Positions 4,228-34,136 of a stretch of DNA of 64,000 bases are shown piece after piece. The notes beneath the pieces were generated by a model, which saw only the letters and a list, made by a program, of their open reading frames with translations, had not been told where the DNA came from and searched no databases. Both the position numbers and the translations under genes were made by a program. Position 1 is the stretch's first letter; each line of letters starts with the position of its first letter. This DNA is from an uncultured Methanoregulaceae archaeon (lineage in GTDB: Archaea; Halobacteriota; Methanomicrobia; Methanomicrobiales; Methanospirillaceae): NCBI GenBank assembly GCA_963705255.1, contig OY970061.1, forward strand, positions 2,080,001 through 2,144,000. The letters are read 5' to 3'.

Positions 4228-6662
<2,435 letters not shown>

Positions 6663-30958: not shown

Positions 30959-32121
30959 GAGACGTAGCAGTTATCGGGGCCGGCTGCACCACGTTCGGTG
31001 AGAAATGGGAGAGCTCGTTCCGCGACCTCTTTGTCGAGGCCGGGGCCCTTGCGCTCGAGGATGCCCAGCTCTCAGGCGAGAAGATAGACGCAATGTATGT
31101 CGGTAATATGAGTGCGGGCCGCTTCATCGAGCAGGAGCATATCGGTGCCCTTATCGCGGACTATGCCGGCCTGACTACCAACCATATCGCCTCGACCCGT
31201 GTCGAAGCTGCCTGTGCTTCCGGCGGGCTCGCCTTCCGGCAGGCGGTCATCGCGGTCGCAAGCGGCATGGAAGACATCGTGGTGGCAGCGGGAGTCGAGA
31301 AGATGACCGATGTCGAGCCCGGTGCAAGCACCGATGCCCTCACCGGTGCAGCGGATCGCGAGTGGGAAGGGTTTGTCGGCGCGACATTTCCCGGCCTGTA
31401 CGCGATGATCGCAAACGACTACATGCACAAGTACTCCATGACCCGCGAGCAGCTCGCTCAGGTTGCGGTGAAGAACCACTACAACGGCGCACGCAACCCG
31501 ATCGCCCAGTTCCAGCAGGAGATCACGCTCGAGACCGTGCTGAAGTCCACCATGGTTGCTGAACCGCTCCGGCTCTTCGACTGCTCGCCCATTACTGACG
31601 GGGCGGCAGCCGTCATCGTCGCACCGCTCGAACGGGCACGGGAGTTCACAGACACGCCGATCAAGGTGCTGGCCACGGCACAAGCAAGCGATTCCATCGC
31701 GCTCCATGACCGGCGCGATATCTCGACACTGGACGCAACCGTTGCCGCAGGGCAGAGGGCATTCAGGATGGCGAAGCTGACGCACAAGGATATCGACATG
31801 GTGGAAGTCCACGACTGCTTCTCGATCGCGGAGATCTGTGCAATCGAGGACCTCGGGTTCTGCAGGAAAGGAACGGCAGGTAAGTTCACCGCTGACGGCG
31901 AGACCGCGCTTGGCGGGAAGATCCCGGTCAACACGAGCGGGGGGCTCAAGGCGTGCGGCCACCCGGTCGGCGCGACCGGTATCAAGCAGGTGTACGAGAT
32001 CGTCCAGCAGCTCCGTGGCGATGCAGGCAGGCGCCAGATCGAAGGCGCAAAGGTCGGCATGACCCACAACGTTGGCGGCACCGGTGCAACGGTTGCCGTG
32101 CATATCCTCGGGAGGGTATAA
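30955..32121 (+). CDS. Acetoacetyl-CoA thiolase (archaeal)
   Basis: [26 protein letters not shown]. Confidence 0.93.
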
Positions 32122-32122
32122 C

Positions 32123-32514
32123 ATGACCGTTGCACGATTCTGGAGAAAGATCCCGCAGCGGTACAACCTTGTGGGCACGAAGTGCGAGACCTGCGGGCGG
32201 CACTTCTTCCCCCCGAGGACATTCTGCCCCGACTGCCGCAGGACCGGGAAGATCGTAGATCACAAGTTCTCCGGGAAGGGGACCGTGGTGACCTATACCA
32301 TCATCCAGACAGCCCCCGACCAGTTCGCCTCCCCCGGGCCGTACGTGCTTGCTATCATCAGGCTCGATGAAGGCCCCGGATGACGACCCAGATCATCTGC
32401 GACCCGAAAGACGCGAAAATCGGCATGAAGGTCAAAGGCGTCTTCCGCCGGATCGCCACGGATGGCGAGAGCGGCATCATCCACTACGGTACGAAGTTCG
32501 TGCCGGTGGAGTAA
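32123..32514 (+). CDS. DUF35 zinc-ribbon/OB-fold scaffold of the thiolase-HMGS complex, with an indel at ~32378
   Basis: RFWR..PQRY, CETCG..FPPR..CP.C, then VFRRI...G.IHYGTKF. Confidence 0.9.
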
Positions 32515-32628
32515 ACTTCTATTTTATTGCTGACAATACGGGATAGTTCCCGACCGGGATTCTCCGCGATTCAATCGAAACTTGTGATACCCGTTAATCT
32601 ACTGCTGGATTTTCCCATCATGGGTAGG

Positions 32629-33779
32629 TGTAGTGTAAAGTGACATCGTGTCCTTTCTTAATGATCTAAAACGCTATGGGACTATGAACAATCATCCAGG
32701 CATGTGAATTTTTATCTCCCAATTTCCCACCACCAGATCCAATTTTAGATACGGTTGAGAATGAAAAAGAAAAGTAAAGATTCTGTTATTAGAAGAAATG
32801 GCAGAAGAAGAGGGGTAAGGTCTCATTTGCATGAGTTGTTCTCGTAAAGTTCCAGTGAAAATAAAAGAAGAGTTGATCAAGGAGGCAGGAGGCAAATGCG
32901 CTAATCCAGGATGCCCCAATACTCTAACTGTATTTCATCATATTCATGAATGGCATGTCTGTCTTACTCATGATAAGAAGACAATGATTGCAATATGCCC
33001 CGCATGCCATCATCAAGTACATTGGGGATCTATTAGAATTACTGACGATACAATATATGCATGGAAAGCCATAAAACGACCTCCCGACATGCGTCCTGTC
33101 GGTCAGATTTACATTGAACCTCAACAACCAATCAAATTATTAGTGGGATCAATGGCCGTGACGGGGCAAAAAGGCGCAATAATTTTACGTTTTAGTAAAA
33201 ATCAAAAATTAAGTTTTAAAGTGATAGATAACGATCTTTGTTCGTTGAATATATCAGTATCCGATCTCGATGATCAAAAAGTAATCCGTATAACTGATAA
33301 TTATGTTAAAGAATATCAAACAAATAAAATACACTACGAGAAACGGACGGGTAAAATCACATTAAAAACCTTTAATATTCAACAATTTATCCCAGATTGG
33401 TTACTCCAAGAAATTTTAAAATTTTACCCTGAGTATGAAAAGAATTTGCCGTTTACATTATTTGATTTAGAAGTCGTTAAACCCGGAATGGTTAAAGTTC
33501 AAGGGGTATGGTCAACATCAAACCAAGCAATAGTAATTACTCAAGATCAGATAATTTTCTCCCCTCATCCAACAATAGGGCCCACCGTTGCTATTAAGGG
33601 AATGGGGGAAAACACCATTATTAATTGCGTTGGTCCGCTTACAATTCCCTTATTTAATCCTGCAAGCCTAAAGTGCGGGTAATCTTTCCTTCTTTCCTAT
33701 ATTAGAAAGTGGGTTCAATTGCCATAGATTTGCCAGTTATAAGTTCCACGGTTTGGACACGGTGTCACTTTACACTACA
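32629..33779. mobile_element. Non-autonomous insertion cassette with 25-bp terminal inverted repeats, carrying an HNH gene
   Basis: Left end TGTAGTGTAAAGTGACATCGTGTCC (32629-32653); right end 33755-33779 reverse-complements to TGTAGTGTAAAGTGACACCGTGTCC (24/25); GG on both flanks; AT-rich interior. Confidence 0.75.
32831..33682 (+). CDS. HNH endonuclease with an uncharacterised beta-rich C-terminal domain
   Basis: CANPGC...HHIHEW...MIAICPACHHQVH; AT-rich, foreign-looking codon usage. Confidence 0.8.
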   Translation: MSCSRKVPVKIKEELIKEAGGKCANPGCPNTLTVFHHIHEWHVCLTHDKKTMIAICPACHHQVHWGSIRITDDTIYAWKAIKRPPDMRPVGQIYIEPQQPIKLLVGSMAVTGQKGAIILRFSKNQKLSFKVIDNDLCSLNISVSDLDDQKVIRITDNYVKEYQTNKIHYEKRTGKITLKTFNIQQFIPDWLLQEILKFYPEYEKNLPFTLFDLEVVKPGMVKVQGVWSTSNQAIVITQDQIIFSPHPTIGPTVAIKGMGENTIINCVGPLTIPLFNPASLKCG

Positions 33780-33944
33780 GGTACCCTCCCCCTTTTGTGA
33801 TGTACTGAGATGTACCTTGGCCGACGGAGCCTATCCAATATTGGGAGAGGAAAGGGCATGTGGGGGTACCCCCTAGGGGGTTGGCAGAATTCGCCTTTCA
33901 TGGAGTGGATGAACGAGAAATTCAGGAGAGGTTTGACGCTCAAG

Positions 33945-34092
33945 GGGGCATCGCCCCCGCCGCGTGGGCTCCCCCAATAGCGATAGTTTTGATTCAAGGT
34001 AATGAGTAGCGCAAAACCCGACGAGGATCAGTCGTCGTACAGCGAGGACTGATTTGAGAAGCCATCAGGCTTCGAGGCGTTTTGCGCGTAAG
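33945..34092. repeat. GC-rich hairpin/REP-like dispersed repeat
   Basis: CGCCCCCGCCGC..GGGC.TCCCCCA.ATAG.GATAG and AGGCGTTTTGCG.GTAAGG both recur at 36455-36732; stem 34009-34017 pairs with 34079-34087. Confidence 0.55.
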
Positions 34093-34136
34093 GCATCGCA
34101 ATAAAAACAGAATTGGATTTTTCGTTATCGGGAAAA

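Follow-up and report, generated by a model that had tools for sequence, protein, structure and literature searches.

An HNH nuclease gene in a probable transposase-less cassette of an IS481-like transposon family from methanogens

Results

We analysed a stretch of 64,000 nucleotides (hereafter the window; positions 2,080,001 to 2,144,000 of contig OY970061.1, assembly GCA_963705255.1) from an uncultured Methanoregulaceae archaeon, and in it a small AT-rich segment that begins with TGT, ends with ACA and carries one gene, for a protein with an HNH nuclease domain (Table 1). This segment is very probably a transposase-less mobile insertion cassette belonging to a family of IS481-like DDE transposons in a genus of methanogens. 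The members of the family share their ends and vary in their cargo, the larger relatives encode a transposase, and insertion produces 6-bp duplications and favours targets that resemble repetitive extragenic palindromic (REP) sequences.

Terminal repeats and paired relatives

A repeat search of the window detected 32-nt inverted arms (32622-32653 and 33755-33786) that are 91% complementary and separated by 1101 nt. The 25-bp inverted repeat that the original prediction had placed within these arms, reading TGTAG...CTACA at its extremes, is real, as is the 1151-bp AT-rich interior with a single gene that it had described. The GC content of the element is 0.28-0.43, compared with ~0.6 in the flanking genes. 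Its sole credible open reading frame (ORF) is the one encoding the HNH protein; two antisense ORFs of 75 and 67 aa had no Pfam match, and tblastn with the family transposases described below found no trace of transposase sequence inside the element.

The same ends recur across the genus and in public metagenomes. When the 21-mer core of the 25-bp end motif TGTR-RTGTAAARTGACATCGTGTCC was searched with up to three mismatches, 52 sites were found in 25 of 108 genus genomes, compared with five matches for the reversed 21-mer in the same genomes, and an exact 20-mer core was present in 93 stretches of public metagenome contigs. In the 68 unique metagenomic ends that had enough flank, the terminal positions read T63 G64 T66 G59/A8 G59/A6, followed by the core and then by TTTT. 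The first T of TGT marks precisely where the conservation ends, so that the element boundaries originally proposed are right.

Ten inverted pairs of these ends were drawn from further genus genomes. The DNA between the ends, 494 to 7689 bp long, is in every case richer in AT than the flanks. The search of the host and its relatives for further copies of the end, which had been suggested with the original prediction, yielded pairs that flank different cargo and a DDE transposase. Six of them (L098, L099, L100, L101, L102 and L103) are cognate autonomous elements with a protein of 325-348 aa that contains HTH_23/HTH_32, rve and rve_3 domains and is split into two ORFs in L098. The remaining four have no transposase, like the window element, and measure 2.2 kb, 0.8 kb (with one 200-aa ORF), 0.9 kb (with an S-adenosylmethionine-dependent methyltransferase) and 0.5 kb. 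Among 80 metagenomic loci, a transposase lies at most 1.5 kb from the end in 13. The non-autonomous, transposase-less cassette from a family with shared ends that the original prediction had postulated is supported by these elements.

All five full-length transposases had IS481 as their best NCBIfam match (159-173 bits, E values of 1e-46 to 7e-51, covering profile positions 2-283 of 284), and we accordingly classify the family, as judged from these profile comparisons, as IS481-like. Named homologs of the transposases come from a Methanoregula sp. (79% identity), Methanoculleus oceani (62%) and a metagenome-assembled genome (MAG) of Hodarchaeales (45%). The host genus of the family is probably Methanoregula, an assignment taken from the names of these homologs and not from marker genes.

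Members without a transposase also have relatives elsewhere. A 931-bp methyltransferase cassette in one genome (G092) has a relative with 83% identity in another (G013), and a metagenome contig (L161) carries a relative, at 84% identity, of the 2.2-kb cassette of a third genome (G110); in both cases the flanks differ and the homology begins exactly at the terminus. The occurrence of two transposase-less types at two sites each suggests that such members do move.

Table 1. Coordinates of the features of the HNH cassette and its insertion site in the window
Feature	Position	Strand	Remarks
Probable mobile insertion cassette, whole element without transposase	32629..33779	+	1151 bp, AT-rich
Left terminal inverted repeat, TGTAGTGTAAAGTGACATCGTGTCC	32629..32653	+	24/25 to right end; same motif in genus genomes and metagenomes
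Right terminal inverted repeat, reverse complement TGTAGTGTAAAGTGACACCGTGTCC	33755..33779	-	24/25 to left end
Left flanking hexamer, GGTAGG	32623..32628		At family duplication position; 4/6 to right hexamer; bridged by X2 contig
Right flanking hexamer, GGTACC	33780..33785		Centre of REP-like GGGTACCC motif; commonest target hexamer; no contig cover
Cargo gene	32831..33682	+	283 aa; predicted N-terminal HNH nuclease domain (~1-87) and beta-rich C-terminal domain with no confident fold match (~97-279)
A-rich 36-bp stretch upstream of HNH start	32743..32778		Recurs in two autonomous relatives

Target duplications and insertion sites

The 6 bp outside the two ends, as read by script, are identical in eight of the ten pairs and agree at five of six positions in L105. 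No other duplication length between 2 and 9 bp fits the ten pairs. Position -4 outside the end is T in 45 of 68 metagenomic ends and position -3 is A in 42 of 68, so that the middle two bases of the 6-bp duplication are TA. This dinucleotide is seen centrally in 31 of 67 ends, as against 3.4% of random positions, and a run of at least five G or C is found in 42 of 67 outer 30-nt flanks, as against 5.6% of random genome 30-mers. The commonest target hexamers are GGTACC (4/67) and CCTACC (3/67). The targets of the family are REP-like palindromes with G/C runs and a central TA; IS481 itself has the target NCTAGN.

The host's own 2.60-Mb genome (coordinates prefixed G000) contains clusters of G-rich palindromes (GGGGTACCCC, GGGGTAGCTACCCC and GGGGTAGGTACCCC) that look like REP sequences or bacterial interspersed mosaic elements. 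They lie at G000 71546, 1016620, 1233457, 1236152, 1795600-1795942, 1838334-1838727 and 2365840-2366223, and the hexamer GGTACC occurs 1032 times in this genome compared with 745 expected from base composition. Such clusters of G-rich palindromes serve as landing sites for the transposon family.

The palindromic nature of the window's insertion site, as originally described, holds in so far as the site is palindromic and REP-like, but the sequence GGGTAGGTACCC inferred for it is not a perfect palindrome, as only its GGGTA and TACCC arms pair and the GG core is non-palindromic. The right flank of the element matches one of the 107 other genus genomes (G113, 76% identity). The orthologous spacer of that genome has no element and contains a REP-like cluster ending ...GGGGTGGGTACCCCCCGCCGTTGTGATG, which aligns to |GGTACCCTCCCCCTTTTGTGATG in the window, and at the position of the right junction it reads GGGTACCCCCC / GGGTACCCC without interruption. 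By this alignment, the right junction falls in the middle of a GGGTACCC-type motif, which the relative has without interruption. The left flank, CATCATGGGTAGG|, resembles the first motif of the same spacer, CATCAAGGGGGGGGTACC. The closest relative, G025 (96% identity in the DUF35-type gene), was also considered as a source of the empty site and was rejected, its 234-bp spacer being unalignable to the window flanks.

Support for the junctions was sought by placing the assembled contigs of four metagenome runs on the window. A 151-nt contig of run X2 (32514-32664) bridges the left junction with zero differences, so that an assembly artefact can be dismissed for GGTAGG|TGTAG. The stretch 33764-34007, which includes the right junction, is covered by no contig of the four runs, and these contigs contained no joints, no circle forms (the circle junctions proposed as a check included) and no empty-site forms.

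The HNH cargo protein

By sequence, the HNH assignment of the original prediction has a match only below the cut-off (Pfam PF01844, E = 0.028); by predicted fold it stands. An AlphaFold model built from a 33-sequence alignment had a pLDDT of 85.4 and a pTM of 0.75, and its residues 1-87 matched Cap5 (7rwk_B; Z 8.8, root-mean-square deviation 2.4, 81 residues aligned), EcoKMcrA (6ghc_B; Z 8.8, root-mean-square deviation 2.4, 80 aligned) and IscB (Z 7.7). The presumed zinc-binding cysteines C23, C28, C56 and C59, as well as H36, H37, H47 and H60, are invariant in the 33 sequences. The model thus predicts that the N-terminus has the fold of the HNH superfamily, i.e. a beta-beta-alpha-metal unit with a catalytic His, a four-Cys zinc site and an intact motif. 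The C-terminal domain (~97-279), originally described as unrecognised, likewise finds no confident match: a wide structural search with the full-length model gave at best Z 3.9, to mucin/VWF-D-like beta sandwiches, Foldseek against the PDB gave none at E<=0.001, and the ESM Atlas gave no usable match.

The cargo has 34 homologs of similar length with 33-49% identity, and no family-level sequence match was found for it; the PHROGs match is to phrog_6544 (unknown function; E = 2.1e-8, residues 4-161). All 49 genome loci of homologs in a species-representative collection are bacterial and come from many phyla. No neighbour is conserved among the 93 ORFs that surround the homologs, and the neighbours include KwaB, a CAP12 TIR protein, YhcG/nSTAND, FRG, PLD and Fic proteins, integrases and transposases. 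Our best guess from these sequence contexts is that the cargo would be a stand-alone nuclease of genome conflict, most likely one of defence. The delivery of a defence or toxic nuclease, as suggested in the original prediction, is plausible.

Among the 38 bacterial loci whose flanks were long enough for scoring, the gene is poorer in GC than its surroundings in 36, and 36 of the 38 had no flanking inverted repeat above shuffled controls. The two loci with repeats above shuffles are L047 (26 bp) and L035 (19 bp). In the former (4437-5547 of a Bradyrhizobium MAG contig), the HNH homolog lies within an unrelated inverted repeat whose arms are ~1.1 kb apart (score 17, shuffle maximum 12); it could represent a separate instance of this gene within a small inverted-repeat element, or a local REP.

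Cargo of the family and a defence island in the host

Passenger genes of the paired elements include a pair of GmrSD_N (DUF262) and HEPN RiboL-PSP genes in L101 and a gene for an NYN-domain protein in L099. Next to metagenomic ends we found genes for Fic, a Schlafen AlbA_2/HATPase_c_4 protein, DUF4411 with an IrrE-type peptidase, another GmrSD_N, methyltransferases and a TnpB-like protein, and 57 of the 77 ORFs adjoining these ends had no Pfam match at 1e-6. Matches to flagellin, permeases and an NADH dehydrogenase subunit probably represent host DNA beyond short elements.

A third copy of the end in the host genome (G000 831772-831796) reads TATGGTGTAAAGTGACATCGTGTCC, is preceded by GGGGTACC and forms the left border of an AT-rich defence island of 12.7 kb outside the window (G000:C1:831772-844500, L203). 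The island contains genes for a KwaB-like protein, an 8xMP membrane protein, the GmrSD_N and RiboL-PSP HEPN pair also seen in L101, an N6/N4 DNA methylase and a CAP12-type TIR protein, together with a transposase remnant, and a YhcG PDDEXK gene lies just outside it; no right family end was found for it. The remnant, detected by tblastn with five family transposases, is a 50-aa fragment (residues ~299-346; G000 834679-834828), and neither a PF00665 search nor tblastn with the same five proteins revealed an intact family transposase in the host genome. The site at G000 834784-834808, which matches the end at 20 of 25 positions, was rejected as an end; it lies inside the transposase remnant, the homology reads through it, and by our own estimate ~0.6 chance matches are expected for the threshold applied. 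A 396-aa IS6-like ORF (G000:C1:2147359-2148546, L004) was rejected as the source transposase, being below the PF00665 cut-off and unrelated; it is located 4 kb past the window end and has an N-terminal zinc-finger-like region. Elsewhere in the genome, a ~640-bp AT-rich segment (G000:C1:977393-978040, L204) has no target duplication and degenerate ends, of which the left one matches at 21/25 positions and the right one contains an indel, and this pair (977393/978036) is probably at most an old relic of the family.

Genomic neighbourhood

The element occupies the spacer between a ChsH2 (DUF35-type) gene and a downstream, convergent gene for a Trm5/TYW2-type methyltransferase. Upstream of it lies a three-gene mevalonate-pathway cluster consisting of genes for an HMG-CoA synthase-like protein, a thiolase and the zf-ChsH2/OB_ChsH2_C ('DUF35') protein. 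The last of these is split by a frameshift into ORFs 32072-32383 and 32349-32546. Contigs of three metagenome runs (X1, X2 and X3) have an extra C after position 32373, within a C run, and the gene therefore seems to be broken by a homopolymer error in the assembly and not to be a real pseudogene; the site is not a GTAC motif.

Within the element, the A-rich stretch listed in Table 1 has counterparts in opposite orientation in L098 (2068-2103; 89% over 36 bp) and L100 (2772-2799; 89% over 28 bp). In the same spacer, 33919-34109 is a dispersed repeat of ~190 bp that is also found at G000 608499, 704934 and 1694336 and in several relatives (79-96% identity), and for which Rfam gave nothing above threshold. 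An Rfam scan of the region likewise gave nothing above threshold, whalefall-1 scoring 22 bits where the gathering score is 37, and a tRNA scan found none.

Discussion

Several observations weigh against the view that the window element is a cassette of this family. At the level of the family, the transposases remain under the curated IS481 cut-off (NF033577, 224 bits), so that we do not file the family as a certified IS481 member, and IS3 is a close second (145-156 bits, cut-off 160). One small pair, L107, shows 0/6 identity at the duplication position, and the G013 copy of the methyltransferase cassette has no recognisable right end, which makes the evidence for mobility partial. At the level of the window element, no second copy of the HNH cassette was found: none of the 80 metagenome end loci has an HNH homolog within 1.5 kb, none of 60 relatives has an ortholog, and the gene itself was not found in 59 of these 60, the one match (G031) being weak and confined to the HNH domain. 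The best PADLOC match of the cargo is PDC-M68A, at E = 0.0021 over 30 residues, which gives no usable match to a defence family. The left flank has no real match in the 107 genus genomes and no exact match in the metagenome contigs, and the exact empty site, a recovery proposed with the original prediction, was found in neither. Mobilisation in trans is what we infer from sequence comparisons, and the transposase may instead have been lost in place. Lastly, the hexamers GGTAGG and GGTACC that flank the window element differ (4/6, both with a central TA), and this copy thus lacks the clean signature of a simple insertion.

As the reverse complement of GGTAGG is CCTACC, each of the two window hexamers is by itself a typical family target, and four histories fit their mismatch. 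GGTACC might have been duplicated, with a later change from CC to GG on the left. Alternatively, GGTAGG might have been duplicated in a GGGTAGGTACCC motif, followed by a loss of one 4-bp GGTA unit on the right or an assembly error there, for either of which a right side reading GGTAGGTACCC would speak. A second transposase event, e.g. a one-ended deletion of adjacent DNA that reached a neighbouring REP copy, could have left two unrelated, typical junctions. Finally, the duplication might be an atypical one of 2 bp, against which the rule of the family speaks and with which the variable IS481-type duplications in the literature are compatible. An empty site of the form ...CATCATGGGTA(CC or GG)... 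joined straight to ...CTCCCCCTTTTG would tell a 6-bp from a 2-bp duplication, and one reading ...CATCATGGGTACCCTCCCC... would contradict the latter.

The alternative that survives best is decay in place, by which an autonomous transposon with both a transposase and the HNH gene would have lost the transposase through an internal deletion and never have moved as a cassette. The element is present in a single copy, the imperfect duplication and the 24/25 match of the ends suggest some age, and the host keeps a decayed relative at G000 834679-834828, so that decay does occur there. Nevertheless, we regard this history as improbable: no trace of a transposase is left within the element, two further types without a transposase are each present at different sites, their homology starting at the terminus, and the 80 metagenome loci yielded no autonomous element that has an HNH gene as passenger.

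The original prediction had read the element as IS30-type with a 2-bp duplication, or else as a cassette bounded by serine-integrase att sites, recombining at the 2-bp GG core of GGGTA-GG-TACCC. GG is indeed seen at both junctions, and the GGGTAGGTACCC motif exists at G000 2366212 (within a REP-like cluster) and 2388557. One account of the IS481 family reports duplications of 2-15 bp and notes discrete lengths even inside a single eukaryotic family (PMC10045372). However, the family transposase is a helix-turn-helix and rve protein whose NCBIfam matches at E<=0.001 are led by IS481, then IS3, and include no IS30 model. A 6-bp duplication is present in nine of the ten pairs (eight perfect and one 5/6) and a 2-bp one in none, which speaks against the shorter duplication for the family. 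No resolvase or serine recombinase is encoded in any of the ten paired elements, and among 56 ORFs of 12 elements there was no resolvase or recombinase catalytic domain, only weak HTH_7 matches inside the DDE transposases. We therefore consider both versions highly improbable. Least credible of all is that the HNH protein would be a homing-type endonuclease moving its own gene between incidental inverted repeats: HNH homing endonucleases are common selfish genes and the low GC content of the gene relative to its flanks (36 of 38 scored bacterial loci) would suit one, but 36 of these 38 loci lack flanking inverted repeats that exceed the shuffles, ends like those of the window element also enclose unrelated cargo and a DDE transposase, and 6-bp duplications are a DDE signature.

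A cassette of the IS481-like family can be compared with several known systems. MIC231 of Bacillus cereus is derived from IS231, an insertion sequence (IS) of the IS4 family. According to one description, mobile insertion cassettes have the ends of an IS around one or more passenger genes, lack a transposase and need the cognate transposase (PMC3129680). As far as such descriptions go, the window element resembles MIC231 in that IS-type ends enclose a passenger without a transposase and a cognate autonomous element exists; unlike it, its ends are IS481-like and not those of IS231, its host is an archaeon, its cargo is an HNH gene and its mobilisation in trans is putative.

The IS481 family is reported to occur in bacteria and archaea, with most members making 6-bp duplications, and in the same account the eukaryotic IS481EU elements of Histomonas have TGT...ACA termini (PMC10045372). 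Transporter ISs of the family are described by ISArsp12, which has two passenger genes, TGTAC-initiated repeats and the duplication CCTAGA (PMC6305408). From what that source gives for ISArsp12 and ISPfr21, the methanogen elements share with them TGT-initiated repeats of ~20-25 bp, a 6-bp duplication with central TA and one DDE transposase accompanied by passengers (PMC6305408). They differ in that the methanogen transposases fall under the NCBI IS481 cut-off, the cargo is far more varied and often defence-like, and the window member has no transposase.

A preference for REP sequences is described for the bacterial ISs IS1397 and ISKpn1 of the IS3 family and ISPpu9 and ISPpu10 of the IS110 family (PMC1525189, PMC12288879). 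In the respects those reports cover, insertion into palindromic repeats is common to both groups, and here the hosts are archaeal, the motifs are of the G/C-run GGGGTACCCC type and the transposase is IS481-like. Tn7-like transposons have been described as having variable cargo rich in defence systems (PMC8649781); in the methanogen family, by comparison, transposition relies on wholly different machinery, with a single DDE protein and no TnsB/C/D-type components seen, and the elements, at 0.5-7.7 kb, are far smaller and often hold one gene. With regard to the cargo, McrA-type (type IV restriction) proteins and CBASS Cap5 have the predicted HNH fold of the 87 N-terminal residues in common with the window protein, and the order of domains and the partner domain differ.

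Conclusions

Taken as a cassette of the IS481-like family, the window element probably arose as follows. Autonomous members comprise 25-bp TGTR...YACA ends, one helix-turn-helix and rve transposase of ~345 aa and variable, often defence-type passengers, of which the window copy has the two ends and one passenger, the HNH nuclease gene. A family transposase acting in trans would have attached to the two ends and inserted the cassette in the middle of a GGGTACCC-type REP-like motif, probably by copy-out-paste-in chemistry with a circular form, as used by the IS3 family. With only a 50-aa transposase remnant in its own genome, the cassette is now stranded and would need another autonomous copy to arrive. 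As for the cargo, it probably acts as a stand-alone nuclease on DNA, in defence or conflict; its homologs are single, partnerless and situated in variable or defence islands of many bacteria.

In the full-text literature searched, which does not include ISfinder, we found neither this transposon family of methanogens nor any IS481-type cassette carrying an HNH gene described before. The kind of element is known; new are this member and the picture of an IS481-like methanogen family that lands in REP-like palindromes with cargo mostly of no known family and partly of defence type. A further-reaching and, in our view, rather doubtful possibility is a cassette-exchange system peculiar to these methanogens, in which IS481-like transposases would shuttle single defence genes and small operons between strains via REP-like GGGGTACCCC landing pads, both as autonomous and as transposase-less elements, building islands such as that at G000 831.8-844.5 kb. 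On this view, the HNH protein would be a novel anti-virus nuclease that works as a single gene and recognises the invader through its C-terminal domain.

With 34 full-length homologs spread over bacterial phyla and without a conserved partner, the HNH family is a candidate for a nuclease system of one gene, whose putative sensor domain is unassigned. Since the sharp 25-bp ends delimit the cargo, most of which has no known family, they allow a cheap harvest of candidate archaeal defence genes. For methanogens of peat and sediment, small DDE transposons and their cassettes offer a concrete, testable route by which defence-type genes may be gained and reshuffled.

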